A stretch of 64,000 nucleotides of DNA. Origin: an uncultured Verrucomicrobiae bacterium (GTDB lineage Bacteria; Verrucomicrobiota; Verrucomicrobiia; Chthoniobacterales; Chthoniobacteraceae). Location of the stretch: the NCBI GenBank assembly GCA_963836755.1, contig CAWIKF010000002.1, positions 1,120,001 through 1,184,000 on the forward strand, read 5' to 3'. The notes below the pieces were generated by a model. That model had not been told where the DNA came from. It ran no database searches and saw nothing but the letters and a program-made list of their open reading frames with translations. This document shows positions 1-30,584 of the stretch, one piece after another. Numbering within the stretch: position 1 is the first letter of the stretch; each line of letters begins with the position of its first letter. The position numbers and the translations under genes were made by a program.

Positions 1-134
1 ACGGCACGTTGGAGATCAAATCTGGCAGCGCTGGCACGGTCGTGACCTGTTTGTTTCCGTGCGCGGTCATGAAAAAATCGCGTCAAACAAAATCGAAATC
101 TTGTAAAAAGGGCGTCGCCGGCGAGAGCCGCTGA
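1..134 (+). CDS. 3' end of a probable sensor histidine kinase (HATPase C-terminus), truncated by the window edge
   Basis: Frame from nt 3 reads GTLEIKSGSAGTVVTCLFP...ESR*, resembling the G2 box and last strand of HATPase_c; TGA at 132-134. Confidence 0.55.
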   Translation, partial: GTLEIKSGSAGTVVTCLFPCAVMKKSRQTKSKSCKKGVAGESR

Positions 135-14607: not shown

Positions 14608-16431
14608 TTAAACATTCGCAGGTGCGTGCTCAAACCGCCGCACGACTTCCAAAATTTCGCCGCGCCTTTTCGGCGAAATCATGCCCGTGCCTTTTGCCGA
14701 GCCCGCGTAGTGCCATTCCGAATGCTCGTCAAAAATCTCCTGCACATGCGCCGCCGTCTCTTCGTCGAGGTTTCGCGCCGCACAGATTTCATGGACATCG
14801 AGCAAGTTGGGATCGCGCCCGAGCTGCAGCGCGGTGTCGAGTTTGAAAATGCGCGTCACCGTTTCGAGAAAGGCAGCTTCGCTCGCTTCGCGGCCTGCTT
14901 TTTTGAGCAGCTCCGCCTTTTCGCGGCGCAGTTCAATGCTCCGCCGCGTGGCTAGATCACGCTGCCGCGCGCGCGACTTTTGCACGCCGACGAATCCAAT
15001 CAGCGCCATCAGCGGCGCAAACTGCGCAATCCAGAAAACGGGTCGTCGATAAAGCGCAACGAAACTTTCACCCCAATGCGCGGACCCGGTGCGAATGTAT
15101 AAAATGTCGTTCTTCGGCGCAGGGTTGTCGCGCGGAGAGGCAGCCGGAGTCGCCGCGGCCGCGACGCCTGCGGATGGCGTTGGCACCTGGCCTTCGACGG
15201 CGATCGGGATGGGTTTGCCGAGCAGCGTGACGTATTTTTCAGTGAGCGGGTCGAAGTAGGAAAATCGCACCGGCGGCAATTTTGTTTTCGGTTCGTTCGG
15301 AATCAGCGCGGTCGCAAACGTCTTCGTCCCGCTCGTGCCGACGTCGTCATCGGCTTCGAATTTTCCCGACGCCGGATAAGTTCGCCAGCCACTTTCGTCT
15401 TCGAATTCTGGCGCTTTCACGCGATCAAAGTTTCCGCGCCCGTTGATTTTGGTGGTTACCGTGATTGGATCGCCGGCCTTGACGTGGAGCGGGTTTGCGG
15501 ACTCCTCGAGCGTAAAAATGCCGACTGCTCCGGAAAAACTTTTCGGCTGCTGCGCGGTCGGCAGCGGCTTTACGTTGATGGTGACTGGTTCACTTTTGAT
15601 CGTGAGCTGCTGCTGCGTGCCGAAGCCAAAACCGGGGAACGCATCATCGAAAAAATCGAACGGGTCAGCGCTGCGCCGGTGCCGCTGCTGTGGGATCACC
15701 GCGACGCATTCGAGCTCTGCCGGGCCAAGTGTGAGCGTGCCAGCTTTTGCGGCCGTGATCGCAGTTTTAAATGTGACGAGATCGAAATCGCGGCCGTCGC
15801 GCGTGACCTGGTTTTGCTGCGGCTTCGTAATTTTTTGCACCGTGAAACCGTCGCCACCGATCGTCGGCACTTGCTGCGCGTTCCAGCGAATGCGCGAATC
15901 AACGTAAACGCGAAACTCCACCGGCACGACCTCACCGACAAACGCAGTTTGCTTCGGCACGACGAGCTCCGCAAAAATGTCACGCGACGTCGCCTTCCCG
16001 CCAGTCGCCGCGCCGGTTCGCGCGGAATGCGTGCTGCCGCCGCCGACATCGAGATCGACCGCATTGGTTGTAAATTTTTTCCCGCCGACCTCAACCGTTT
16101 GCGGCGGAATCGTGAATTTTCCCCCGCGTTGCGGGACGACGAGATACGTGTGCACGACGCTCATCGTCACCGTGAAATTGTCCATCTGCACTTGCGTCGA
16201 TTGCCCGCTGTAATTGATGCCAAGCCCATCCACGCTGATTTCGCGCGGCGGATTCGCGGAGCGCGCGCCGGTAATTTTGATTTGATATTGCACCGGCTGG
16301 CCCACATCCGTGGTGGTATCGGTGAGGCTCGCGCTCACCTCAACGCCCGCTGCGCGCGCGGCCGGCGCGAAGCAAAGCAGCGCGAGAAAAACCGCGAGCA
16401 CGGCAGAAGTTGGAAACGCTTTTTTTGTCAT
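14608..16431 (-). CDS. BatD family protein
   Basis: Signal peptide, repeated Ig-like blocks, FSGAVG, FSYFDP, C-terminal TM; TGATG coupling to the upstream gene. Confidence 0.88.
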   Translation of the reverse strand: MTKKAFPTSAVLAVFLALLCFAPAARAAGVEVSASLTDTTTDVGQPVQYQIKITGARSANPPREISVDGLGINYSGQSTQVQMDNFTVTMSVVHTYLVVPQRGGKFTIPPQTVEVGGKKFTTNAVDLDVGGGSTHSARTGAATGGKATSRDIFAELVVPKQTAFVGEVVPVEFRVYVDSRIRWNAQQVPTIGGDGFTVQKITKPQQNQVTRDGRDFDLVTFKTAITAAKAGTLTLGPAELECVAVIPQQRHRRSADPFDFFDDAFPGFGFGTQQQLTIKSEPVTINVKPLPTAQQPKSFSGAVGIFTLEESANPLHVKAGDPITVTTKINGRGNFDRVKAPEFEDESGWRTYPASGKFEADDDVGTSGTKTFATALIPNEPKTKLPPVRFSYFDPLTEKYVTLLGKPIPIAVEGQVPTPSAGVAAAATPAASPRDNPAPKNDILYIRTGSAHWGESFVALYRRPVFWIAQFAPLMALIGFVGVQKSRARQRDLATRRSIELRREKAELLKKAGREASEAAFLETVTRIFKLDTALQLGRDPNLLDVHEICAARNLDEETAAHVQEIFDEHSEWHYAGSAKGTGMISPKRRGEILEVVRRFEHAPANV

Positions 16432-18536
16432 CACCAGTCCTTTAGGACTTCGCTCGAGTGTGGATGTTCATTTAATTGCACGCGCGCTTCCTCGCCCTGA
16501 AGCGAGTCGATGAGCGCGCGTGCCTGCTCCTTGCTCATTTCGCCGGGTTTCACCGGTTCGGCTTCGGCACTTTCATCGCCTTTCTGCTCGCCAGATTTTT
16601 GTCCCGACGGCTGGGCCTTGATGTCGCCGGAAAGTTTTTGATCGCCCGGCGAAGGCGCGGCGCTCGGGGCCGGGCGCTGATTTCCCGGCTGCGAATTTGC
16701 CTGCTGCTGCGACTCATCTCCCGGCTTGGGCTGATTCTGCTGCGGGTTGTTTTGATCCTGACCTTTTTGATCGGACTGGGAAGGATTTTGCTGCTGCTGA
16801 TTTTGCTGAGAACCTTTCTGCTGCTGGTTTTGCGGCTGATTCTCATTTCGAGATTTTTGCTGGTTTGATTGCCCGGCGTTCTGCTGCTGGTTCTGGCTTT
16901 GCTGATTTTGTTGATTCTGATTCTGCTGATTCTGCTGCTGTTGTTGATTCTGGTTTTGTTGCGATTGGTTTTTCTGCTGCCCTTGATTCTGCTGATTTGG
17001 CTGGCTCTGGTTTTGTTGGTTTTGCTGCTGATTCTTTTGCTGGTCTTGCTTCTGGTTCTGTTGATTTTGGTGCTGCTGTTTCGGCGGCTCTTTCTCGAGT
17101 TCAGCGATCAATTTTTGCACCGTATCACGGTTAATCTTTGTGTTCTCGTCGTTCGGCTCGGCTTTCAGCGCCTCATCGTAATGCTCGATCGCATTGCGCC
17201 ATTCATGAATCTTCGCCGGCTTCTCCTCCTGCTTCGCGCCGCGCTGAAACAATGTGTTCCCGATGTTGTATTCCGCTTTCGCTCGCGTGCCGGGATTCGG
17301 CGTGGTCACCGCCTGGCCGAAGGCCTCGAGCGCTTTGTCGTAATCGCCAAGCTTGTAGGCGGCAGTGCCTTCGTCGAAATGCAGCGCGTCTGATTTCGGG
17401 TCGCGCGCGAGCTGCGTCTGGAACTCATCCAGCGCTTGTTTAAAATCATGTTTGTCATACATCTCGACGCCCGGATTCGCGCAAAAGGCGCACGGCGTCA
17501 TCATCAGCAACAGCGCCGTCGCCAGCGCGAGCGAGCGTGCTCTCCGCTTGCGTTCGCCGATCAAAAGCGACCACGCGAGCAGTGCGAGGCCGAGCGCGAG
17601 CGGCCATTGATAACGCTCGATCGGCTGGCGCGAAGTGCGCGCATCGATGTCGTGCTCGCGCATCGGTTCAAGTCCTTTCATGAAAATTTCCTGCATCGCC
17701 GCCGGACCGTTTTGCAGCGAAACGTAGAAACCCCCGGCGGCCTGCGCGATCTCCCGCAGCCGACTTTCATCGAGTTTTGTTTTCACGATCTGGCCCCCGG
17801 AATCTTTGACAAAAGTTGTGCCGCCTTGTTCGTCAGGCAGGGGGATGACCGAACCTTCGCCCGATCCGATCCCGACCGTGAAAATGCGAAACGAGCTCGC
17901 GTTATCACGCGCGGACTGCACCGCGTTTTCCTCCAGATCCTCGCCATCGGTCATGATGATCAGCGCGCGATTTTCGCTCTCGCCTTTGCCAAAAGCTTCC
18001 GCCGCTGTCTTGATCGCGGCCGTAATATCGGTGCCGCCGCGGGGAATTATTTTTGTGTCGAGTTCGTTGATCGAATCGAGCACCGCGGAATAATCAATCG
18101 TCAGCGGCGCCTGCAAAAATGCATCACCCGCGAACGCGATCACCCCGACGCGATCGCCCGGCAGCAGGTTGATCAAATCCTGCGCGGCGAGCTTCGCGCG
18201 CGTGAGGCGATTCGGCGGCAGATCCGTTGCGAGCATGCTTTTCGAGGTATCGATCGCGATGATGACGTCGCGGCCTTTGCGCTGCGTCTGCTGCCACGTG
18301 TAGCCGAGCTGCGGCCGCGCGAGCGCGACGATCACGCACGCGAGTCCGGCGAGCAAAATCAAAAAACGAAAGCGCCGTTTGCTGCTGCTCACGCTCGCCG
18401 CAAGGTCCGACATCAACCGCGCCGCGACAATCTTTTGCAGCAATCGCGCGCGGCGATTTTCATTCCAGAAAAAAAGCGCGAGAGCCGCCGGCAAAAGCGC
18501 CAGCGCCCAAAACCAGAGCGGCGCGCCAAAGCTCAT
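16431..18536 (-). CDS. BatB/BatC-like fusion: VWA + TPR + Q/N-rich tail
   Basis: MIDAS DTSKSM, PLTID, TDGED; TPR (YNIGNTLF); Q/N tract; ends in KDW as BatC-type proteins do. Confidence 0.88.
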   Translation of the reverse strand: MSFGAPLWFWALALLPAALALFFWNENRRARLLQKIVAARLMSDLAASVSSSKRRFRFLILLAGLACVIVALARPQLGYTWQQTQRKGRDVIIAIDTSKSMLATDLPPNRLTRAKLAAQDLINLLPGDRVGVIAFAGDAFLQAPLTIDYSAVLDSINELDTKIIPRGGTDITAAIKTAAEAFGKGESENRALIIMTDGEDLEENAVQSARDNASSFRIFTVGIGSGEGSVIPLPDEQGGTTFVKDSGGQIVKTKLDESRLREIAQAAGGFYVSLQNGPAAMQEIFMKGLEPMREHDIDARTSRQPIERYQWPLALGLALLAWSLLIGERKRRARSLALATALLLMMTPCAFCANPGVEMYDKHDFKQALDEFQTQLARDPKSDALHFDEGTAAYKLGDYDKALEAFGQAVTTPNPGTRAKAEYNIGNTLFQRGAKQEEKPAKIHEWRNAIEHYDEALKAEPNDENTKINRDTVQKLIAELEKEPPKQQHQNQQNQKQDQQKNQQQNQQNQSQPNQQNQGQQKNQSQQNQNQQQQQNQQNQNQQNQQSQNQQQNAGQSNQQKSRNENQPQNQQQKGSQQNQQQQNPSQSDQKGQDQNNPQQNQPKPGDESQQQANSQPGNQRPAPSAAPSPGDQKLSGDIKAQPSGQKSGEQKGDESAEAEPVKPGEMSKEQARALIDSLQGEEARVQLNEHPHSSEVLKDW
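16700..17085 (-). repeat. Low-complexity Gln/Asn-coding tract (CAG/AAT/AAC-rich)
   Basis: About 125 codons of QQNQQQNQ-type sequence inside the VWA-TPR gene. Confidence 0.9.
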
Positions 18537-19573
18537 GGCAGCTTCCTCCAGACCGTTTGCGCGAGCACGATTTCCACCGAGAGCAGCGCGAATCCCGCGC
18601 CGAGAAGCCACGGAAAAAGATCGCGGAATTGTTTGTATTGCGTGAGCTCGACCTTCGATTTTTCCATCTTGTCGATCTTCGCGAAAATGTTTTCCAGCGA
18701 GCGCGTGTCGCCAGCGTAGTAAAAGTTTCCGTCAGCGATCTGCGCGATTTTTTTCAAGCCCGTCTCGTTGAATTCCACGCGCTGGTCTTCGTAAAGTTTC
18801 TGCCCAAACATGTCGGTCGCCTGCTGTCCGGAATTGTCAAACACCGGCACCGGCGCCACGCCGTTCGTTCCCGCGCCAATCGCGTGAAGCTTGATTCCAA
18901 GCGCCTTCGCGGCCTCCGCGGCAGTTTCCGGCGTGACTTTGCCGGCGTTGTTGTCGCCGTCGGTGAGGAGAATCATGACTTTGCTTTTGGAATTTTTGTC
19001 GCGCAGCCGATTGCAGCCCGCGGCGATCGCGGAGCCGATGGCCGTGCCATCCTCGACGAGCCCGATGCGGACGCGCTCGAGGTTTTGCAAAAGCCAATCG
19101 TGATCGAGCGTAAGCGGGCTCACGAGATACGGCTGGCTGCCGAATGCGATGATGCCGATGCGGTCATTCGGGCGGCGCTCGATGAACTTGCGCGTGACCT
19201 CCTTGATCGTGTCGAGCCGGTTCGCGCGATGCCCGCCGATCGTGTAATCCTCAGTCAACATCGAGCCGGAGACGTCGATCAAAATCATGATGTCCACGCC
19301 GCTCGCCTCCACGTGGCTGATCGAGCGACCGAGCTGCGGGCGCGCGAGGCCGAGCACCAGCGATGCGAGCGCGAGAAAAAGGAGACTCGTTAAAAAATTT
19401 CCAACTCGCGATTCCGAGATCCGGCCGAGCGCGCGCAGTGGCGCAGTCGAGGAAAAAACGACCGCAGGCACGCCACCGCGCTGCCCGCGAAGCCAGGCCA
19501 GCAAAGGAATCACGAGCAACAGCAGCAAAAGCCACGGCTGCGCAAAAGTTAATCCCCAGTCGTGGAAATTCAC
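18533..19573 (-). CDS. BatA-like VWA domain protein
   Basis: N-terminal TM (FAQPWLLLLL), LARPQ, MIDAS DVSGSM, GTAIGSA, LTDGDNNAG. Confidence 0.92.
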   Translation of the reverse strand: MNFHDWGLTFAQPWLLLLLLVIPLLAWLRGQRGGVPAVVFSSTAPLRALGRISESRVGNFLTSLLFLALASLVLGLARPQLGRSISHVEASGVDIMILIDVSGSMLTEDYTIGGHRANRLDTIKEVTRKFIERRPNDRIGIIAFGSQPYLVSPLTLDHDWLLQNLERVRIGLVEDGTAIGSAIAAGCNRLRDKNSKSKVMILLTDGDNNAGKVTPETAAEAAKALGIKLHAIGAGTNGVAPVPVFDNSGQQATDMFGQKLYEDQRVEFNETGLKKIAQIADGNFYYAGDTRSLENIFAKIDKMEKSKVELTQYKQFRDLFPWLLGAGFALLSVEIVLAQTVWRKLP

Positions 19574-20127
19574 GCCGCCACCTCCGCCGGCGACGCCGGA
19601 TTTTGTGTCGCGCCGCTTCCTTCGACGAACGCAATCGCCTGCTCGAGCAACGCTTCACTGTCAGCTTGCGACGCATCGATGCGCGCGAATTTGATCAAGT
19701 CACTTTTCTCCAAAAACAGACCGAGCAGCTCCTTTTCGGCCTCGGTAAAGTTTTGCGAAGCCGCGGCCTCCGCGAGAAATTCCGGGGAAGTTTGCCGCGT
19801 CGCGCGCAGTCCGAAATCCGCGGTGACAAAACGTCGTAAAACATCCGAAACCAAAATGCTGAACTCATACGGCGCCATCTCCGTCACGCGCTTGCGCGCT
19901 TCTTCCAGCTCGCGCAGCGCGACCTGCCTCGGCGTCGGCGGAGGCGGCGCGGGTCTCCGTTTCACCCAGCGCCAGATGAGCCAGACTGCCAGCAAAACCA
20001 GCAGCAGAGCCACTCCGCAGGCAGTCGCCACCATCCACATCGGATAGGGAAACACGTCGATCGGCGGCGCGATATCGCGGATGCTCGGCATCGGCGTCGC
20101 CATTTGCGCGAAAAACATTCCGCTCAT
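19570..20127 (-). CDS. DUF4381-like membrane protein of the Bat operon
   Basis: IRDIAPP, single TM, TSPEFL, DLIKFAR. Confidence 0.75.
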   Translation of the reverse strand: MSGMFFAQMATPMPSIRDIAPPIDVFPYPMWMVATACGVALLLVLLAVWLIWRWVKRRPAPPPPTPRQVALRELEEARKRVTEMAPYEFSILVSDVLRRFVTADFGLRATRQTSPEFLAEAAASQNFTEAEKELLGLFLEKSDLIKFARIDASQADSEALLEQAIAFVEGSGATQNPASPAEVAA

Positions 20128-21011
20128 TGCAACGCCATCCTCCGCTCGCGTGTGCGGAAAAAGTTCCGCAGCGCCGGCAGATAATCCTGGTCCGTCCGCA
20201 GCGAGATCGTATCGATCCGCTTCTTCCGCAGACCGCGCTGGAACTCCGCGCGACGCCGCTCGACCAAGTGCGCGTAGGCCGCACGCAGCGACGCGCTCGA
20301 TGTATTCACCTCGATCTGCTCGCCGGTCTCCGCGTCCTCCAGCGTCACGATGCCGACCTCCGGCAATTCTTCCTCGCCCGGGTCCACAATCGGGATCGCG
20401 ATCAAATCATGCCGCCGGCTCGTCACCCCGAGCTCGCGTGAAAAGTCCGGAGCCTGGAAATCCGAGATCAGAAACGCCACCGAGCGCCGCGTCACCAGCC
20501 GGTTCAAATAATTCAGCGCCAGCGCCGGCCGTGTCCCGCGCCCCTTTGGCACAAAAAACAAAATGTCGCGGATTAATCGCAGCGTGTGCAGCCGGCCCTT
20601 CTTCGGCGGGATGAAAAGCTCCACCCGGTCCGAGAATAAAATCAGCCCGACCTTGTCGTTGTTCCGGATCGCGCTGAAAGCCAGCACCGACGCCACCTCA
20701 GCCGCGAGCTCGCGCTTGCTCAGCCGCACGCTCCCGTATTTGCCCGACGCGCTCACGTCCACGATCAACATCACGGTCAGCTCGCGCTCCTCGGTGAACT
20801 TTTTAATATAAGGATGCCCCATCCGCGCCGTCACATTCCAGTCGATCGCCCGCACCTCATCGCCCGGCGCATACTCGCGCACCTCCTCGAAATTCATCCC
20901 GCGTCCCTTGAACACACTCCGGTATTGCCCCGCAAACGCCGCGCTGACCAGCCCCCGCGTGCGGAGCTCGAGATGTCGGATCTTTTTTAAAATTTCATGC
21001 GGCGTATCCAT
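20124..21011 (-). CDS. DUF58 domain protein
   Basis: GQYRSVFKGRGMNFEEVREYAPGDEVRAIDWNVTAR, EEREL, DVSAS, ISDF; ATG at 21011. Confidence 0.93.
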   Translation of the reverse strand: MDTPHEILKKIRHLELRTRGLVSAAFAGQYRSVFKGRGMNFEEVREYAPGDEVRAIDWNVTARMGHPYIKKFTEERELTVMLIVDVSASGKYGSVRLSKRELAAEVASVLAFSAIRNNDKVGLILFSDRVELFIPPKKGRLHTLRLIRDILFFVPKGRGTRPALALNYLNRLVTRRSVAFLISDFQAPDFSRELGVTSRRHDLIAIPIVDPGEEELPEVGIVTLEDAETGEQIEVNTSSASLRAAYAHLVERRRAEFQRGLRKKRIDTISLRTDQDYLPALRNFFRTRERRMALQ

Positions 21012-21226
21012 CAGTGCGCTGAGATAAAGGCGGCACGTCGGGAGTGTGTAAAGCCCCTTCGCGCCTGAGACAAAGAGAGACACCACCGGCTGGGAAAAAG
21101 TTCAAAAAACCCGCCGCGCACTTGCCGATGCCGAATCAAAGTCTCGAGTGTCGAGGCCGGGAAACGCCCTTGCACTTTCCCCGCTTCCCGTGGAATCTTC
21201 GCCGCGCGCCAGCTTACGCATTCAAG

Positions 21227-22612
21227 ATGCCCGAAGATCCTCCTCATCGAGAAGTTTTCAGCAGGGGATGGGCGCGTCGCACGTTGGTTTCCCTCGTGCT
21301 CGGCATTTTTCTCGCGCGCGGAGCGGCTGGGGCGGAGCCGAGCCAGAGTCGAACTCCGACGCCGGCGCCGACACCTTCGCTCTCGCCAATGAAAGTGCCG
21401 TTGCTGAAATGGCCAGACCTTTCGCGCGGCCCAGGCCCGACGCCCACTCCGCCAATCCCGCCGCCCAAACTTCCGATCAAGATTCACCTCCAGCAAAACC
21501 CCGACAGCGACAACCTTTCGATCTACGTCGGCATCAATGGCCACCCACCTGTCGCCTATCTTCTCGATACCGGCTCCGATGCCTTCATCGCGGCGGGAAC
21601 CGCATGGCATCGGCAGAAAGTGGACTCCATCAGCAGGTCGAAAAAACCGGAGTCCGCGCTCTATGGCGACGGAACCTACGGCTACACTTACTTCCCGGTG
21701 ATGGCGCACCTCGCTTTCTACGATCCACATGCCGGCCGGCCTACGCTCGTGCTTCCGGCGCCGGAAGGTTACGTGGTCGGACGCATCGAGGAGCAAATCT
21801 TTGACCTCGAACCGAAGAAGCACATCAACGAAACCAGCAAAGTTACCACCGATGGCGGCATCTTCGGCGCCCGAATGCTCATCGGCGGCGCTGGCGAAGA
21901 CGTCGCGGACGGCTATCAACTTTCCAACACTCTCTATCAAATCCCCGGCGTGCAGGGACTCGTCGTCACCGACAACGGCCCACCCGGCACCGCGAGCCTC
22001 ACCGTCGGCCTGAACCAGGGAATCCGCGATCAGTTCAAGCAAAAGATCACTCTCACACCCAATGGCGGAAATTTTTCCCATTCAAACCTCCCGTCTTGCG
22101 ACGAAGCCGTGGTCAACCTCACTTTTTCCATGGAAGGCGAAAAGCCGGTCACCATCTCGACGAACCTCGGCCTCGATACCGGCTCGTCGACAGGCTATCA
22201 CGCCGGCTTTACTGCAGAGACCGCCAAGCTCCTCGCCCCGTATCTCGTGGATAGCCTCAGTAGCGTGGCCCATGACAAGGCATCGACGGCGAACAAGATC
22301 GTGAAGGCAGGCACGACCCTCACCTTTTCCTTCCCCGGCCGGCCCGATGGCTGGAAATATACTTTCCGCAGCAGCAGATCGTCCGCGCGCGGCGGAAACT
22401 CGGGCTTTATCCCCGTCACCAACCTCAGCAACGACGAGAATGACATCACCGTCGGCATCAGTTTCTTCGAGCACTTCGCCGTGATGTATGACATGGAAAA
22501 AGGCGAGCTCGGCCTGCGCGACAAGCCACCTGATCTTTCCCCCGCCATCCTGCATCCGGAAGAACATCCGGAAATCGCGCCGAAAAATCTCGTCGGTGGT
22601 CCGCACAATTGA
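21227..22612 (+). CDS. Secreted pepsin-like (bilobed) aspartic protease-like protein
   Basis: Two catalytic-type motifs LLDTGS and GLDTGS, flap-like YGDG, C-terminal VGISFFEHFAVMYD...LGL; signal peptide plus P/T-rich linker; start uncertain. Confidence 0.72.
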   Translation: MPEDPPHREVFSRGWARRTLVSLVLGIFLARGAAGAEPSQSRTPTPAPTPSLSPMKVPLLKWPDLSRGPGPTPTPPIPPPKLPIKIHLQQNPDSDNLSIYVGINGHPPVAYLLDTGSDAFIAAGTAWHRQKVDSISRSKKPESALYGDGTYGYTYFPVMAHLAFYDPHAGRPTLVLPAPEGYVVGRIEEQIFDLEPKKHINETSKVTTDGGIFGARMLIGGAGEDVADGYQLSNTLYQIPGVQGLVVTDNGPPGTASLTVGLNQGIRDQFKQKITLTPNGGNFSHSNLPSCDEAVVNLTFSMEGEKPVTISTNLGLDTGSSTGYHAGFTAETAKLLAPYLVDSLSSVAHDKASTANKIVKAGTTLTFSFPGRPDGWKYTFRSSRSSARGGNSGFIPVTNLSNDENDITVGISFFEHFAVMYDMEKGELGLRDKPPDLSPAILHPEEHPEIAPKNLVGGPHN

Positions 22613-22914
22613 GACAGCGACGGCCATGAAGGCATTCCGTGCTGCGCGGATTCGGTGCTGCTTCGCGCAAAACCTCGTATAATCGCAAAAAATATTGCTT
22701 GCCATCCCTCGCGCATGCCGCCAGTCTCGTCGGCGGGATGCGGGGTTTGATCGAATGCGGGTGCGGGTTTGCCGGACATTGGAACGTTCGGGCCGGAAAA
22801 GCGTGCCGCCTGCCGATTTCCAAAGCTCGCTGTCAAAAATCTCCCGCTGCCGGTCGCGGACTCGCCGTCAAAACTCGCGCACATCTCTGCCGACCCTTCG
22901 AAAACTGCGCTTGG

Positions 22915-23229
22915 AGTCGATTTTTTGCCACTTCGACGCGATCTTTTGCCAGTCCAACTCCATTTTTCAATGCTCAGTGTTTATTTTTCGTCACTTCGCC
23001 TCTCTTTTCTTCCGCTCAGAGTCTATTTTTCACCTCTCGGACTCCATTTTCTTCCGCTCAGATCCCCTGTTTTCAAGCGCCGACAAAGTTTTCTAACGCT
23101 CGGACTCTACTTTAAGACGCACTGAGTCGGTTTTACGACGATACAAATCCCTTTTCTTCCCCTCCGGCCTAATTTCACTCCTCTTCGACCCTCTTTTCTC
23201 CCGCTCCCACTCCATTTTCACCTTCTCGC
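22915..23229. repeat. Degenerate tandem array, 15 x 21 bp, approximate consensus ACTCYATTTTYWYCCGCTCRG
   Basis: Units start at 22915+21n with no indels, e.g. actccatttttcaatgctcag (22957), cctctcttttcttccgctcag (22999), actccattttcttccgctcag (23041), actccattttcaccttctcgc (23209). Confidence 0.85.
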
Positions 23230-23302
23230 GCAGCGTTTCTGAGCCCGCGCCGCGCGTTACACCCAGCTGGGCTCAAAGTTAATTACCAAACAAAAACAAA
23301 AA

Positions 23303-24025
23303 ATGAACGATACCCAAGTCAACAAAATCAACAGCTATCAGGCGACCAACCTCGTCCTGACCGCCCCCGCCAACGCCCCGCTCTGGAGCCCACTCGCCGC
23401 CTTCGTCCGCGGCCAGACGAGCCTCGCAGGCAGCATCAACATCCTGAACGCCCTCGGCCAGAGCCAGGGCAACGTCCTCACCGGCATTGCCGTCGATAAA
23501 GATCGCCTCCAGCAATCCGTCATCAACCGGATGCTCATTGTCGCAGGCGCGGCCGGCGGTTATGCCTACGAAACCGGCAACCAGACCCTCGCCGCACAGT
23601 GCGCCACCACCGAGAGCAAACTCAAGAACACCCGCGACGCCGTCCTCGACGACCTCGCACAAGCCTTGCACGACACCGTCGCCCCATTCGTCACCGCACA
23701 GCCCGCGAAACTCGCCGAATACGGCCTCACGCCCGCCATGCTCACCGATCTCCAAAGCGCCATCACCGCCTACGCGGCCGTCGTCGGCACTCCGCGCGCC
23801 GCCATCGCCGCGCGCGCAGCCACCACGACAGCTATCGATGCCGAGATCGCCCGCGCCGACGCAAACCTGACGAGCCTGCTCGACAGACTCATGCTGCAAT
23901 TCAAAGCCGCGCACCTCGACTTCTACAATGCCTACCTAAACGCCCGCAAAATCATCGACCTCGGCAGCAATCCCGGCAAACCCGCGCCCGCGGAGCCGGA
24001 GCCTGTGGTGCCAGCGGCAAAGTAG
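23303..24025 (+). CDS. Uncharacterised alpha-helical Ala-rich protein (240 aa)
   Basis: Clean ORF with strong C-ending codon bias; A-rich leader CAAACAAAAACAAAAAATG; motifs MNDTQVNKINSY, LAEYGLTPAML, DFYNAYLNARKIID. Confidence 0.85.
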   Translation: MNDTQVNKINSYQATNLVLTAPANAPLWSPLAAFVRGQTSLAGSINILNALGQSQGNVLTGIAVDKDRLQQSVINRMLIVAGAAGGYAYETGNQTLAAQCATTESKLKNTRDAVLDDLAQALHDTVAPFVTAQPAKLAEYGLTPAMLTDLQSAITAYAAVVGTPRAAIAARAATTTAIDAEIARADANLTSLLDRLMLQFKAAHLDFYNAYLNARKIIDLGSNPGKPAPAEPEPVVPAAK

Positions 24026-24043
24026 AATGGTTGATCCAATCTC

Positions 24044-24286
24044 CTACTTTGTTGCCGTGAATTTGTAGAGCATGACGCCGTGCGGCGGCAGGGTCATCGG
24101 CAGCGTGTCGGCGGCGGTGTCCACTACGGCTACGTCTTTCTGCCGCCACAGGTCGCGGACTTGCTGCCGGCCGGCGAGGTGGAGCTGCGCGAAGTGGTTG
24201 AAGTGTAGGTCGGCGGCCTTGTCACCGAGGTTGAAGAAGCCGAGCGCGCGGCCGCCGTCGGCAAGGTCTTTTTCATAGACACTCAC
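24044..24286 (-). pseudogene. Orphan C-terminal beta-sandwich of a GH27 alpha-galactosidase (gene remnant)
   Basis: VYEKDLADGGRALGFFN...VRDLWRQKD...LPPHGVMLYK is the typical melibiase C-terminal domain; no catalytic barrel upstream. Confidence 0.75.
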
Positions 24287-25323
24287 GGAGCTGCCTTGAG
24301 CAGCTTTGAGATGTCATCGATCTCTGCAACGCCTATCCACTTGTCGGCTCCGCCGTAGTAGAATCGCCAGAGACCTTTGAAGTGCGCCGCACCTTCGGTA
24401 AAGGTAAACACGTGGCGCCCATCGATTTCATACTTAAACTGAGGTTCGATGAAAGGAGCTTCGCAGCGTTTCAATAGCTTTGAAGGATCGTCCTTTGAAA
24501 ACAAGGCCCAGCCTGTCTTGTGGACATGGGCACTGTTCCACCCATTGTAGATGAATAGGATTCCTTCCGGCAGCATGATAGGTGTCGGGCCAGGCTCGAC
24601 TCCCAGGCTATCGAAATGATCCGGGCGCGCACTCATGAGCGAGTGGTCGAGTGGCTGGCTCCAGTGGATGAGATCGTCGGATACGGCCATGCCAATGGAA
24701 GGCTGCCACGCCGTCAATTGTCCGGCGAAATACATGATGTATTTGCCGCCGATTTTTTCCGGCACGATGACGCCGGCTTTGACCTGGTCTTTGTTCCATC
24801 TCTCAGGTTCGAGGATGACACCTTTCTTATCCCAATGAATGAGATCGGGGGAGGTGGCAATGCATTGCACGTCATGTTGGCTGTCCTTATTCCCTACATA
24901 GGTCAGGTAGTAAGTTTCGTTGAACCGAACGAGACGAGGGTCTTCGCAGCCATTCTGATCGTAAGGCTTGTCGGGAACCATCACGGGATTGTTGGCGTAA
25001 GGGACAAAGCTTCTTCCATCATCGCTAAAGGCCAATTGAAGGCGCGATCCGATAGGGCCATGAGTATTCCTCCGATAGATCATGGCTAAACGGTCGCCTA
25101 CTTTGATGACGGTGGGATTGAAGACAAGGTTGTCGCCCAGCGCCTTGTCGGGCGACAGGATCGGTTCGGAGTAGCGGACGACGCCGTTTGGCTCATGGAC
25201 TTGGAACTTTGTAAAATCCCGCGGGGCCTGCGAACTGGCCGGAGTGCCGGTGGCGTTCTGCGAATGGAGCCGGGGAACGAGCGAAATCGCCGCCAGAAGC
25301 GGCGCGAGAAGTTTTTTGTGCAT
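24283..25323 (-). CDS. Secreted GH130-like glycosidase/phosphorylase (five-bladed propeller)
   Basis: Signal peptide from ATG 25323; VFNP, GCEDPR, YYLTY, VEPGP, YYGGAD. Confidence 0.87.
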   Translation of the reverse strand: MHKKLLAPLLAAISLVPRLHSQNATGTPASSQAPRDFTKFQVHEPNGVVRYSEPILSPDKALGDNLVFNPTVIKVGDRLAMIYRRNTHGPIGSRLQLAFSDDGRSFVPYANNPVMVPDKPYDQNGCEDPRLVRFNETYYLTYVGNKDSQHDVQCIATSPDLIHWDKKGVILEPERWNKDQVKAGVIVPEKIGGKYIMYFAGQLTAWQPSIGMAVSDDLIHWSQPLDHSLMSARPDHFDSLGVEPGPTPIMLPEGILFIYNGWNSAHVHKTGWALFSKDDPSKLLKRCEAPFIEPQFKYEIDGRHVFTFTEGAAHFKGLWRFYYGGADKWIGVAEIDDISKLLKAAP

Positions 25324-25398
25324 CGATATGGCTTTTAAAGTGTTCTTCCATACCCGACGAGTGAATGGAATGCATGAAAGTTGTCCCCAATATTTAAA

Positions 25399-27853
25399 AT
25401 GAACCTCCGATTTTTCGTTGTCTGTATCGCCTTTGCTGTTGCCGGCGCCGCGCCTCATCTCGCCGCTGCGGAGGCGTCGCCGCACGAGCATCTTTCGCTC
25501 GACGCGAACTGGAGATTCCACCTCGGCGATGACTGGCCGGACGCGCTTTATCTCAACAAGGCCGGCGTCAATAAAGGGCCGGCTGCGGCGAACTTTGACG
25601 ACACCGCGTGGCGGACGATCCACCTGCCGCACGACTGGGCGGTCGAGTTGCCGTTCGACCCGGCGGCGGATCCGGGGCACGGGTTCAAGCCGGTCGGCCC
25701 CGGATTTCCGCGGACAAGCGTCGCCTGGTATCGCCGGACATTTGAGCTGCCGGAGAGCGACAACGGGAAGCGGTTCTGGCTGCAATTTGACGGCGCGTTT
25801 CGCGACGTGACGGTTTACGTCAACGGCTGGTTCGTCGGGCATTACGAGAGCGGCTATTATCCCTTCCGCGCGGACATCAGCGATCTCGTCCGCTTTGGCA
25901 AAAAGAACACGATTGCCGTGCGCGTGGATGCGAGCCGGTTCGAGGGATGGTTTTACGAAGGCGCGGGGATTTACCGGCACGTCTGGCTCGATAAAGCCGA
26001 GCCGGTCGCGATCGCAGCCGACGGCATTTTTGTTTACAGCAAGTTCGCCAAGAATGTGCCCGAGGGTGCAGCGGAGTTGCATGCGGAGGTGCGGTTGGTT
26101 AACGCGCTCGACAAGCCGGCGGAGGCGAGTGTGGTGCAAACTTTTTTTGATCCGAACGGGAAGCGAGTCGGCGAGATGAAGGAACAGGTGAACCTGGAGC
26201 CGCTCTCGCAAAAAGATTTCACATCCGATGCGGCAAATCAGCATCTCGCGCTGGACAAATACGAACTCTGGTCGCCGGAAACGCCGCGGCTCTACAAGCT
26301 GGTCACAACCGTGTCGGTCGGCGGCAAAGTCGTCGATCGGCAGGAGACGGCGTTTGGCATTCGCACGGCGACCTTTGATGCAAAAGAGGGATTTCTCCTC
26401 AACGGCAAACACTACGAAATCTGCGGCACCTGCAATCATCAGGATCACGCGGGAGTCGGCGCGGCATTGCCGGACGCGCTGCAATATTTTCGTATCGCGA
26501 AGCTCAAGGAATTCAGCAACGCGTATCGAACCGCGCACAATCCGCCGACGCCGGAACTGCTCGATGCGTGCGACCAGATCGGCATGCTGGTGATGGATGA
26601 GAGCCGGACGCTCGGCAGCGACGAGGCAAATATTCATCGCTGGGAATCGCAGGTGCGGCGCGACCGCAATCACCCGAGCGTAGCCTTCTGGAGCCTTTGC
26701 AATGAGGAGCCGATGCAGACCGATGCGAATGGCGGCAAGGTCGGCGGATCGATGCAGGCGCTGGTCAAGAAGCTCGACCCGACGCGAGCCGTCACGGCGG
26801 CCGAAAATGTGGGCGATGTTTACACCGGCCTCGAGAGCACGCTCGAAGTGCGCGGCTGGAACTACAACATTACGCCGGAGCGTGCGGTCCAGGTGGGAGC
26901 GTATCGCGCGAAACATCCCAACCAGCCGAACCTCGGTAGCGAGCAGGGGGCCAATCGCGGCACGCGCGGAATTTACACCAGCGACGCGGCGAAAGGCTGG
27001 GTTAGTTGCCGGCCCGGCAACATCGAAAGATGGTGGCCATTTTTTGCCGACCGTCCGTGGCTCAGCGGCGCCTTTGACTGGACGGGCTTTGACTACCGCG
27101 GAGAACCGACGCCGTATCATTGGCCCTGCATCAGCTCGAGCCCCGGGATTTTGGACACGTGCGGCTTCCCGAAGGACAACTTTTATTATTTCCAATCCTG
27201 GTGGACGAATAAGCCAGTGTTGCATCTCGAGCCGCATTGGAACTGGCCGGGCAAAGAAGGTCAGGAAATTGAAGTGGATGCGTTGAGCAACGCGCCGGAG
27301 GTCGAACTTTTCCTCAATGGCGAAAGCCTCGGTCGCAAACCGGTGCCGCGTAACTATCACGCCACGTGGCAGGTGAAATACGCGCCGGGAACTTTGAGCG
27401 CGAAGGGTTACGACAACGGTAAGGTCGTCTCGGAAACCAAGGTCGAGACGACCGGCCTAGCCGGCGTCGGTGGAGTTGACGCCCGACCGATCGAAGATCA
27501 ACGCCAACGGCGAGGATCTGAGCGTTTTCACCGTGTCGGTGAAGGATGAGAAAGGCCGCGTCGTGCCGACTGCGATGAACGCGATCCATTTCCAACTCGA
27601 AGGCGCAGGAAACATCATCGGCGTCGGCAACGGCGACCCGAGTTGTCACGAGCCGGATACCTATGTGGCGCAAGCGCCCGTGATGCAGCCGTCGCCGTGG
27701 GTGCGAAGCGTCTTCAACGGCTTCGCGCAAGTCATCGTGCAATCGACGAAAGAGCCCGGCACTCTCACGCTCACCGCGATCAGCGAGGGATTGAAATCCG
27801 CCACCGTCTCAGTGCAAAGCCAGCCGTGCACTCCGCGCCCGAGCGTGCCGTGA
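25399..27853 (+). pseudogene. GH2 beta-galactosidase-like gene with a +1 frameshift at ~27457-27460
   Basis: LPHDW, YEGAGIYR, NHQDH, RTAHNP, WSLCNEE, GFDYRGEP in frame 1; the C-terminal domain (PASVELTPDR...VGNGDP) continues in another frame to 27853; could be an assembly error. Confidence 0.8.
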
Positions 27854-27873
27854 CAACACGAAGATTTTTCCCA

Positions 27874-30192
27874 ATGAGAGCCAGTTTCGTGGCGATGATG
27901 TTCGCAGCCGTTGCGTTGACGGCAAAACTTTCCGCGGACGAAGCGCCGGGGAATTCGGCTTTTCGCACCATCTTCACGAAACCGCCGCAGCCGCTGCCGC
28001 TTTACGAGCAGATCGACTCGCCATTGATGGGAAATGGCGACATGGCCGCCGCGATCTGCGGCAATCCGGAAAACCAGCAGTTCTGGCTCAGCAAAAATGA
28101 CCTGTGGGAATTGCGTCCGGTCTGGTGCATGAGCGGCCCGCGCCCGTTCGGCCATCTCGACATCCAGATTCCGCAGCTCAAGAACGCGAGCTATCACGTG
28201 GAGCAAGATTTGTTCGACGCAACGACGGTCGCGACTTTTAAAACAGGCAAATCGAGCGTGAAGATGCGTTCATGGGTTTCGGCAACGGAGAATTTTCTCG
28301 TGGTCGAACTGAGTTGCGCAGGGGCGCCGGTGAGCGGCGATGTGCGGATGTGGATTCCCGCGAAGGCCAGAACCACGCCGCAGTCCGATCATCGCCCGAA
28401 ACACGGGACGGCCGATGATTGGGTGGGAGCGCCCGCCGCGCCGGTGAAGGAAAATGGCCACGGAACTTTCTCCGGCGTGAGAGCTTTCGTCGAAAATGTC
28501 GAAGTCCCCGCCGCGGTCGCCTGTGCGTTCCGATTGCAAGGCGGGGAAGGGGAGCATTTCACCCTGCGACCGGGAAAAGCGGTGGTGCTCGTCGCGGCAA
28601 TGAGGAGTTTGCGTCAAAGTAAAAACTATCTTCCCGAAGCGATTGCATGTGCGACCTCCGTGACGTCGGCCGATTTGACGAAACTTTACGCCGCGCATCA
28701 AAAATGGTGGCGCGGATTTTGGGCGAAGTCATCGGTCGAACTGGGCGATCCCGAGTTGGAATGGCGATACCATGTTTCCAACTACATCCTCGGCTCCTGC
28801 AGCCGCGACCCGGAATATCCGCCCGGCATCGCGGGCACGTGGGTCACGACCGATCAGCCGATGTGGACCGGCGCCTACACGCTCAATTACAACCACGAGG
28901 CCTGCTTTTACGGCCTTTATTCCAGCAATCACATCGAGCAGGCCGATCCCGAGGACGCGCCGATCCTGGATTTCAGGAAGCGCGGCGAATTTTACGCCGA
29001 GGTTGTTTTCAAATGCCGCGGGGTGCTTTATCCCGTCAAAATCGGCCCTGTCGGAGTCGAGACTACCGGCGATTCTCTCCATCCGAATATCGTCACACGG
29101 CCCAACGACGCGCCGTGGCTTCGGCAGAAAGGCGGACTTTTTCTCGGACAAAAAAGCGACGCCGCGTTTGGAGCGATGGATATGGCGCAGCGTTGGTTTA
29201 CGACGCGCGACCCGGCTTATGCTGAAAAAGTGTATCCGTTCGTTCGCGACGTGGCGCGGTTTTGGGAGGATTATTTAAAGTTCGAGCCGACCCCGCCCGC
29301 AATGATCAAGGCGACGGCGAATTTGCCCGAGCTTTTGCGACAACCCGCCGACGGCCGGTATGTGATTTACAACGACGGCGCGAACGAAGGCGGCCAGGAC
29401 ACGAATCCGACCTTGTCTCTGGCGATGTTGCGGACGGTTTTGAAACTCGCGACCGACCTGAGCAGCGAGTTGAACGTTGACGCGAAGGAACGGGAGAAAT
29501 GGCATTACATTCTCGCCCACCTGAGCGGCTATTCGACGCGGGAGGTCGATGGCAGAGTTATCTTTGCCCGCACGGAGAAAGATAATCCGCAAAGGACGGG
29601 GCATCATGGCTTCGGTTCCAGTATCAGTCCGATTTATCCGTCGGGCACGATCGGCCTCGGGAGTGATCCGAGGTTGCTCGAGATCGCGCGCAACACCATT
29701 TCGCAGCAGAACCAATGGGTTTCGACGAACAGCGAATCGGGTTTTTTCCCGGCCTCGGTTCGCGTCGGATACAACGCCGACATCGTTTTTAAAAAGCTTC
29801 ACGAAATGGTTTTTCAAGCCAACGGCGTCGTGTCGAATCCGATGCACATGCTGGAGAACAGCAGCATCGTTCCGAACACCGTCGACGAAATGCTGATGCA
29901 GAGCCACGAGGGAATCATCCGGTTGTTCCCCGTCTGGCCGAGGCAACACGATGCGCGATTTCACACGCTGCGGGCGTATGGAGCTTTCCTGGTCAGCGCG
30001 CGGCTCACGAACGGCAGGACGGCAGATGTCTCGATTCTGAGTGAAAAAGGAATGCCGTGCGTCGTGCAAAATCCTTGGCCCGGCTCTCGCGTATCCGTGA
30101 TCTGCAACGGCGAGACTCGGAATCTTGCGGGTGCAAAGCTCAGTTTTAAGACATCGCCCGGCGACCTGATCAAACTCGTCCCGGTGGAATAA
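27874..30192 (+). CDS. Secreted GH95-like glycoside hydrolase ((alpha/alpha)6 barrel)
   Basis: PLMGNGD, HQKWWRGFW, YTLNYN, EMLMQSHEGIIRLFPVWP, LRAYGAFLVSA; start 27874 or GTG 27850. Confidence 0.8.
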   Translation: MRASFVAMMFAAVALTAKLSADEAPGNSAFRTIFTKPPQPLPLYEQIDSPLMGNGDMAAAICGNPENQQFWLSKNDLWELRPVWCMSGPRPFGHLDIQIPQLKNASYHVEQDLFDATTVATFKTGKSSVKMRSWVSATENFLVVELSCAGAPVSGDVRMWIPAKARTTPQSDHRPKHGTADDWVGAPAAPVKENGHGTFSGVRAFVENVEVPAAVACAFRLQGGEGEHFTLRPGKAVVLVAAMRSLRQSKNYLPEAIACATSVTSADLTKLYAAHQKWWRGFWAKSSVELGDPELEWRYHVSNYILGSCSRDPEYPPGIAGTWVTTDQPMWTGAYTLNYNHEACFYGLYSSNHIEQADPEDAPILDFRKRGEFYAEVVFKCRGVLYPVKIGPVGVETTGDSLHPNIVTRPNDAPWLRQKGGLFLGQKSDAAFGAMDMAQRWFTTRDPAYAEKVYPFVRDVARFWEDYLKFEPTPPAMIKATANLPELLRQPADGRYVIYNDGANEGGQDTNPTLSLAMLRTVLKLATDLSSELNVDAKEREKWHYILAHLSGYSTREVDGRVIFARTEKDNPQRTGHHGFGSSISPIYPSGTIGLGSDPRLLEIARNTISQQNQWVSTNSESGFFPASVRVGYNADIVFKKLHEMVFQANGVVSNPMHMLENSSIVPNTVDEMLMQSHEGIIRLFPVWPRQHDARFHTLRAYGAFLVSARLTNGRTADVSILSEKGMPCVVQNPWPGSRVSVICNGETRNLAGAKLSFKTSPGDLIKLVPVE

Positions 30193-30253
30193 GCGCGAAG
30201 TTTGCGGAAAAAAGTTTCTCTCTTTTTCGCAAAGAGAAACATAGTTTTTCGCG

Positions 30254-30517
30254 ATGAAATTCACATCTCCCCTCGCCATCGGCGTTGCGCTTTTATGCGT
30301 TGGCTGTTCCGAGTCCAAGAAGCCTTTGGACACGGGCAACGCCGTCTCGGGAACGATCTGGGATCATCCGCCGTCAGCCGGTGGCTCCAATTCGGGCTCG
30401 TCCATTTCTCAAGGAGCGCGGGTCGATGTGTATGAGAGGCTGATCATTGTTTCGCTCAAAGACGGCAGTCGGCAGGTGGTGCCGATGGAGGACGTGACCA
30501 ACCTGAAGTTGCAGTAG
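30254..30517 (+). CDS. Small hypothetical lipoprotein
   Basis: Lipobox CVGC after a hydrophobic core; 87 aa. Confidence 0.7.
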   Translation: MKFTSPLAIGVALLCVGCSESKKPLDTGNAVSGTIWDHPPSAGGSNSGSSISQGARVDVYERLIIVSLKDGSRQVVPMEDVTNLKLQ

Positions 30518-30584
30518 CCTCTGCTGCGCCGATAAAGGCTTTCCAGCGGCGGCGGAAACGGGGAAGTTTTGCGCCGGCCCCGCC

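Follow-up and report, generated by a model that had tools for sequence, protein, structure and literature searches.

A non-coding array of phased 21-bp units is tied to the gene of a 240-aa helical protein downstream of it, and this array-gene unit is widespread across the order, with a patchy, multi-copy distribution. From homolog to homolog the array keeps its period and its size while its sequence changes together with the adjacent protein, and the conserved columns of its units recur with a rhythm of 10.5 bp. The source genome holds about 20 counterparts of the module and many copies of arrays without a gene. These properties could be those of a cassette in which the encoded protein coats the neighboring array, a reading that is weighed below against several others. 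The cassette is part of a widespread class of elements that is apparently unpublished.

The Focal Array and Its Gene

The array (Table 1) gives the strongest period-21 signal of the window, the whole 64-kb stretch of DNA that was analyzed. Its self-identity at lags of 21, 42, and 63 bp is 0.54, 0.55, and 0.54, and the mean over five lags (0.544) lies far above that of 2000 dinucleotide shuffles (0.292 ± 0.013, maximum 0.339; z ~20). In a leave-one-out profile all 15 units claimed by the initial annotation score above background (p ≤ 0.006), while the weak 16th unit that it had proposed at 23230-23250 does not (p = 0.11). The T-run that it described at columns 7-10 is found in 13-15 of the 15 units and the A at column 1 in 12, and the inverted repeat that it placed between array and gene is present. 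Its judgement that this is not a CRISPR agrees with the head-to-tail arrangement of the units, which have no spacers, and with the lack of any CRISPR family match in Rfam. As it also stated, no ORF spans the array: the plus-strand frames end at 23094 (TAA), 23113 (TAA), and 23123 (TGA), and stops occur in all six frames, those of the minus strand being of mixed types. The array ends 73 bp before the ATG.

Table 1. Features of the focal module, in positions of the window.
Feature	Position	Strand	Basis or remark
Array of 15 consecutive phased 21-bp units, indel-free, non-coding	22915..23229	.	Shuffle statistics, leave-one-out edges, stops in every frame
Conserved patches per unit: TTTT at columns 7-10, CTC at columns 17-19			About one helical turn apart
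Inverted repeat TGAGCCC...GGGCTCA (7 bp) between array and gene	23240..23275	.	Sequence
A-rich leader preceding the ATG	23276..23302	+	Similar A/C-rich leaders before many other array-linked genes
Gene of a 240-aa all-helical protein, candidate reader of the array	23303..24025	+	ORF, predicted structure, family comparison

A sigma-70 scan called no promoter upstream of the gene. At 22678-22683, 230 bp before the start of the array, there is a perfect TATAAT that lacks a matching -35 element and that the scan did not call; if it is used, the array would fall within the leader. Contigs from four soil runs, compared with positions 16000-32000 of the window, gave thin coverage of the array, with no joint across it. 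On the upstream side, a 522-aa ORF (21044-22612) has no Pfam match and carries two LDTGS motifs, which we take to be suggestive of an aspartic-protease fold, and directly downstream of the focal gene a short minus-strand ORF (24044-24286) resembles a C-terminal piece of a glycoside hydrolase.

The product of the focal gene is predicted to be all-helical (pLDDT 96.5), and C makes up 0.71 of its four-fold third positions, the 99th percentile among 1945 likely genes, which bears out the earlier description of a helical ORF with strong codon bias. Pfam and NCBIfam gave no match above cut-off. The protein belongs to a family of 6275 clusters at 50% identity that has no family name; its nearest atlas clusters are unnamed proteins of Bacteroidota and Verrucomicrobiota, and its named relatives come from Luteolibacter, Akkermansiaceae, and Verrucomicrobiaceae. 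Basic residues are conserved in the family at K8, K66, R111, R165, R171, R195, and R215, with K66, R165, and R215 near-invariant, and the family core is close to neutral (median net charge -1.5). Fold searches with the focal model returned generic helical bundles only (best Z 9.5) and no known DNA-binding fold; compared with helix-turn-helix and ribbon-helix-helix proteins, the model is a long helical bundle with generic matches. Many relatives bear an Ig-like or Fn3 domain. A search with a partner protein of the Fn3 type matched only the Fn3 domain, and thereby barely tested the helical part. In profile comparisons the C-terminal half of the focal family resembles one group of array partners (86%, E 5.5e-6), which in turn resembles three more (83-97%), and links to five other partner groups are weak or absent.

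Other assignments were tried and set aside. The link to DUF6261 (PF19775) is a lead at the level of features only (0.86): the focal protein has no Pfam match, and the family is absent among the 25 of 37 families listed for 150 members. The helix pattern suggests an internal duplication of the 240-aa protein, but comparison of the profiles of its halves does not support one (probability 0.3%). A close-alignment scan of viral contigs gave no relative, and PADLOC gave two weak matches in one relative, which we take as chance.

Linkage of Array and Gene Across Homologs

Periodicity upstream of homologous genes had been named beforehand as the test by which the initial annotation could be refuted. 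Order-wide, an array of 21- or 42-bp period lies upstream of 45 of 55 homologs and downstream of one of 52, the single downstream array belonging to a following gene, and the proposed two-part module of array plus gene is thereby supported. The set comprised 56 matches that reach the N-terminus, of which 55 were counted, with partial matches excluded; one of the ten homologs scored as lacking an upstream array is a slicing error at a contig end. A first set (26 rows with two duplicates, the focal locus counted) comprised 24 distinct loci, 18 of which had an upstream array of 20-21 or 41-42 bp; among 1498 control upstream regions the share was 2.9%. The six negatives of this set include a pseudogene, a short flank, and an uncertain start.

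Across the order, the gene turned up in 28 of the 300 other genomes searched, with no more than nine matches in any one of them. Its neighbors were unrelated at eight of the nine loci listed, the ninth having almost no flank, and the only neighbor families to recur beside it were those of one cluster of four near-identical loci and of one minor cluster.

Conserved Period, Size, and Helical Rhythm

Unit parsing over 45 arrays, in which one failed parse gave three units, found steps of exactly 21 bp in 532 of 562 cases and of 20 or 22 bp in the remainder. Array size is similarly confined, with a median of 14 units and a 10th-90th percentile range of 10-17. The earlier suggestion of selection on spacing is supported: period and size are conserved and sequence is not. 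T-tract curvature, pyrimidine skew, palindromicity, and RNA folding were each tested across arrays as conserved traits and rejected. A4/T4 tracts are found in most units of the focal array and of most Luteolibacter-type arrays and in 0-16% of the units of seven other arrays; in 43 of 45 arrays they occur in at most 30% of units. DNA bending by phased T-tracts, one of the functions first proposed, is not supported as the conserved one, given the scarcity of such tracts in most homolog arrays. In Luteolibacter-type arrays, units of 20 bp stand among those of 21 bp with nothing to compensate for them (five to seven 20-bp units per array in L003, L006, L036, and L038), and strict 41- and 42-bp arrays occur in the source genome (G000); together these rule out a reading frame.

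The sequence of an array follows the protein beside it. The more alike two proteins are, the more alike are their arrays (Spearman 0.77). Where the proteins are at least 40% identical, all significantly similar arrays share orientation, and the focal array resembles Luteolibacter-type arrays at 57-60% protein identity. Paralogs of one genome that are less than 50% identical have unrelated arrays (about one of 54 pairs similar), and at low protein identity arrays are as unlike within a genome as between genomes (likeness 0.198 vs. 0.206). There are exceptions at close range: the proteins of L037 and L039 are 79% identical and their arrays unrelated, and by eye the same is true of paralogs at 75% and 80% identity. 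In L037 (upstream 60-350) and L043 the unit type shifts along the array, the gene-proximal units keeping a CGTTTT-type core or being more diverged and the distal ones being newer or identical, which hints at polar turnover.

Conservation within the unit has a helical rhythm. In 32 strict-21-bp arrays the relative power of column conservation at 10.5 bp is 0.27, against 0.10 for permuted columns (z = 10) and 0.10-0.11 in simulated neutral arrays, and 10.5 bp is the top harmonic in 14 of the 32. Three larger array sets gave z values of 12, 11, and 5; kin within the sets and overlap between them inflate these z values. For the focal array by itself the harmonic has p = 0.04, with its two patches as in Table 1. 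The period-7 harmonic of conservation is not raised, so that a single broad patch does not explain the rhythm; the period-3 (codon) harmonic is below expectation, and the A/T-versus-G/C signal has a period-7 harmonic (z 2-6). The rhythm supports the idea, among those first put forward, of an array bound by protein. From the geometry of DNA, a protein reading one face of the B-form helix would leave two such patches per unit of two turns, separated by one turn.

Arrays Across the Source Genome

The focal array is not unique in G000. A scan found 61 segments of period 21, against 0-4 at periods unrelated to 21, and with periods 41 and 42 included the total is 73, or 69 after four were dropped. 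Those dropped were two segments that are native coiled coils of chemotaxis-type proteins, a weak match inside a gene, and C2:1718408, which is short but upstream of a partner-type gene, so that 69 is a slight undercount. About 21 of the 69 arrays precede orphan genes, as assigned by reading their neighbors, and the partner proteins are either all-helical or helical with a C-terminal beta domain (Fn3 in three). Two near copies of whole cassettes, with array, leader, and gene start, were seen: at C1:273679 the gene diverges after a few codons, and at C2:923919 it looks broken. Two related orphan genes of 159-169 aa (C2:1046063-1046542 and C1:161195-161704; L081 and L091) have short 21-bp arrays downstream rather than upstream.

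The other arrays of G000 are mostly gene-less, and many of them are built of the same units as a gene-linked array. There is no gene-less copy of the focal array in this genome; the array of the focal paralog has two, without common flanks. Homogeneity within the array is somewhat higher in gene-less copies than in gene-linked ones (median 0.77 vs. 0.71; p = 0.03). Gene-less arrays are often found immediately 5′ of an ordinary gene. Of the arrays at C2:764656 and C2:1528776, one comes right after a gene that ends like an integron-type tyrosine recombinase, and the other ends just before a tmRNA-like 3′ end.

Six arrays lie in frame within long genes, which, as read from their sequences, appear to encode alanyl-, valyl-, and leucyl-tRNA synthetase, IspG, ribonucleotide reductase, and an RND pump. 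In the three genes checked, the insert is absent from the orthologs (IspG 5/5, AlaRS 5/5, reductase 4/4). The insert in AlaRS has the same unit as a gene-linked array and, judged by eye, the same edges; that in IspG has the unit of another such array. No target-site duplications were seen by eye, at junctions that relatives this distant do not fix. The AlaRS frame (C1:58953-62516, L051; 1187 aa) holds the array, a Y1 transposase-like segment, and in-frame REP-like peptides; this segment is one of two Y1 transposase matches in G000. G000, at 96% completeness, yielded no reverse transcriptase (PF00078), and no mobilizing enzyme linked to the cassette was found.

Short motifs recur beside the arrays. 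A motif shared by different array families, ACAGAGTAAA or in its fuller form (A/T)ACAGAGTAA(A), stands beside about 20 of the 69 arrays (e.g., C1:228984, C1:630456, and C2:751975; loci L095-L120), and 10 of the 11 copies of its 10-mer in G000 are within 120 bp of an array. We take it to be loosely similar to an IHF box. The focal array lacks it, as do the homolog arrays that were scanned. It flanks arrays in seven of eight matches in G401, four of seven in G402, and none of 11 in three other genera, where three of the matches abut apparent tRNA or tmRNA 3′ ends. An element of about 17 bp with TAACACTAAA lies beside three arrays (C2:1903757, C1:228723, and C2:2228730), at two of them within an inverted repeat.

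A Second Class of Partner Genes

Arrays also accompany a subfamily of ArsR-like genes, whose products have a winged helix-turn-helix, a known DNA-binding fold. The array lies directly upstream of all 13 copies of this subfamily and downstream of none of 12, and these arrays likewise show the 10.5-bp rhythm (z = 3.3). At further ArsR-like loci an array was found for two of three strong and two of 21 weaker matches.

Candidate Mechanism and Alternatives

The reading that we favor, with our confidence evenly balanced for and against it, is that of a self-binding, dispersing cassette: its protein would coat the adjacent array and so control expression of its own gene. Array and gene would together form a cassette of about 1 kb. 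The 10-17 units of the array would serve as double-stranded DNA sites, spaced by two turns of the helix, and a protein would touch each of them at two patches on the same face. The likeliest reader would be the adjacent protein, coating its own array cooperatively and thereby autoregulating its gene. Unit sequences specific to each cassette lineage would allow about 20 cassettes to coexist in one genome. The cassette is found at unrelated sites, and its array also exists in copies without the gene; as a purely hypothetical route, segments of whole-turn multiples could excise and re-enter as unstrained circles.

The one-face rhythm, the fixed size, the tracking of array and protein, the conserved basic residues, and the parallel family with a winged helix-turn-helix all argue for a cassette that binds itself. 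Against it stand the lack of a known DNA-binding fold in the helical protein and its near-neutral charge, the array swap under close proteins at L037 and L039, and the ten of 55 homologs scored without an upstream array. The Ig-like or Fn3 domain of many relatives would also be unusual in a DNA-binding regulator, and covariation of array and protein is expected from plain co-inheritance as well, among kin that are not independent.

The main rival, which we rate as unlikely although far from negligible, is that a host factor, either a nucleoid protein or one associated with the polymerase, reads the helical rhythm of any array. Arrays would then be portable promoter or anchoring elements, with the helical, Fn3, and ArsR-like genes as their cargo. 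A host factor would also account for the one layout common to two unrelated protein classes, and the position of gene-less arrays before ordinary genes, the occurrence of ACAGAGTAAA beside different array families, and the swapping of arrays under close proteins point the same way. However, ACAGAGTAAA is absent at the focal array and the scanned homolog arrays, and array sequence follows the adjacent protein. The equal unlikeness of arrays within and between genomes would moreover make such a reader nearly blind to sequence, yet the units keep specific patches.

It is distinctly improbable that the array acts as RNA, in the form of a long leader or a repetitive non-coding RNA that is bound by protein or controls translation, an idea also raised for such repeats in the covered parts of PMC8161180. 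Orientation is fixed relative to the gene, and at several loci of the Luteolibacter type 10-37 bp separate the array from the ATG, so that the array is probably transcribed. The earlier annotation had considered an RNA, but folding gives no support to a structured one, with z values of +0.5 and +0.8 for the focal array and four of 34 strand tests beyond ±2 across arrays, one of those positive. Rfam gave no match at gathering score, and we take its one sub-threshold snoRNA match as chance. The distance from array to ATG varies from 26 to 514 bp among homologs. A-form duplexes have about 11 bases per turn, and the rhythm of 10-10.5 bases fits B-form DNA.

The ArsR-like winged-helix protein could instead be a trans-acting reader of all arrays in a genome, with the helical genes as its regulon, but we give this a slim chance. 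In its favor are its DNA-binding fold, its own array at every copy, and the presence of the helical family in 12 of the 13 genomes with a strong ArsR-like match, as compared with 29 of 301 genomes overall (nominal p ~7e-13, with kin not independent). Conversely, a strong match is absent in 17 of the 29 genomes with the helical family, so that the ArsR-like protein is not a universal reader. G401, G168, and G387, all with arrays before partner genes, likewise lack a strong match, and the single copy of G000, at C2:2144803-2145120, would have to serve dozens of unrelated unit sequences.

A neutral minisatellite, hitch-hiking on a mobile gene and renewed by slippage, is very improbable. Some arrays are young and homogeneous, as at the C4:56330 paralog (93% identity), differences are mostly transitions (377 of 628), and the AlaRS of G402 carries a different 21-bp insert in the same loop, of which no second copy was found. 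Slippage, however, gives no reason for the single period in G000 or for persistence at less than 30% protein identity, and neutral simulations lack the 10.5-bp rhythm. For gene-linked arrays the minisatellite reading is largely refuted, and it may describe the fate of some gene-less copies. An encoded heptad-repeat peptide on one strand (antisense in the initial annotation), possibly through stop read-through, is scarcely credible: 21 bp equal seven codons, one plus frame in register with the gene has two TGA stops only, and there is the A/T-versus-G/C harmonic at period 7, but stops of mixed types occur in all six frames, uncompensated 20-bp units and strict 41-bp arrays break the frame, and the codon harmonic is depleted.

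Returning to the self-binding cassette, a bolder version, which we regard as doubtful, would have the helical proteins polymerize on their phased array into a rod-like nucleoprotein, often with the Ig-like domain outward, in a complex that promotes copying or transfer of the array. This would be selfish DNA without transposase, integrase, or reverse transcriptase, with dozens of orthogonal protein-array pairs per genome, and it would explain constant-size 20-21-nt repeats across bacteria.

Comparison With Known Systems

Iterons with their Rep initiators are units of about 20 bp in helical phase beside the cognate gene, and their specificity differs between lineages. The present arrays share the unit length of about 20 bp, the helical phasing next to a gene, and the lineage-specific sequence. 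Unlike a Rep protein, the focal protein has no likeness to a winged-helix initiator and no Pfam or NCBIfam match above cut-off, and no Rep family is among the 25 of 37 families listed for 150 members. The units are also only about 60-80% alike, and no plasmid or phage context was found.

Rickettsia palindromic elements (RPEs) are repeats that enter genes in frame. MITEs and REP/REPIN sequences with RAYT are non-autonomous repeats, according to the covered parts of a review (PMC3184786). As in these systems, copies with and without the gene occur side by side, some of the gene-less ones are translated as part of housekeeping proteins, and filled and empty sites occur among relatives (IspG, AlaRS, and reductase). 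In contrast to them, the arrays are direct tandem repeats with no folding signal and are not palindromic (0.18 vs. 0.175 for the null), and the gene linked to the cassette, unlike that of REP/RAYT-type elements, is no recognizable transposase.

Plasmid centromeres such as parC, with the centromere-binding protein ParR, have the same arrangement as tubC/TubR. In tubC/TubR, direct repeats lie upstream of the gene for a protein that spreads on them and represses its own promoter, as described in the covered parts of PMC6009700. The present module likewise has direct repeats upstream of the gene for a candidate binding protein (45 of 55 homologs), a likeness of position only. By analogy, the module would most likely work like tubC/TubR. 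It differs from both systems in that the helical protein appears to have a different fold and that cassettes are chromosomal, number up to about 20 per genome, and have arrays that also occur alone. Unlike tubC/TubR/TubZ and parC/ParR/ParM, it has no linked motor ATPase or GTPase, the two ParA-like ORFs of G000 being 15 and 97 kb from the nearest array, and because it has no motor gene it falls outside the class of partition systems. As a module of array plus gene, it fits none of the known families compared here.

The nearest description is that of Subirana and Messeguer, who reported bacterial tandem repeats of constant size (20-21 nt) and variable sequence, with data from Bacillus; in the passages covered they pointed out the two helical turns, suggested a protein polymerizing on DNA, and left the constant length as an open question in print (PMC8161180). 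Descriptively, repeats of the focal type fall in this class, as far as those passages define it: they have a fixed 20-21-nt period with variable sequence, several families per genome, and short conserved cores, and they are mostly non-coding, with a minority of G000 arrays in frame in genes. The same passages describe no partner gene and no 10.5-bp rhythm for the published repeats, and no in-frame copies of their non-coding families (PMC8161180). No paper on the array-gene pairing was found in the openly accessible articles covered; the supplements of PMC8161180 and the tables of an earlier 1241-genome survey cited there may list such arrays. The repeats alone are thus already catalogued, and it is the function of the array-gene module that we infer here. 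By it, constant-size repeats are given proteins as candidate partners, a one-face signature that can be measured, and naturally occurring pairs, cognate as well as non-cognate, and the question of the 20-21-nt length becomes testable by one binding assay. A large protein family without a named function is concerned, and if each protein reads its own array only, the cassettes would be a natural library of orthogonal DNA-coating pairs. Gene-less copies, which add 70-90 residues to essential enzymes, extend the reach of the element to the shaping of host proteins.
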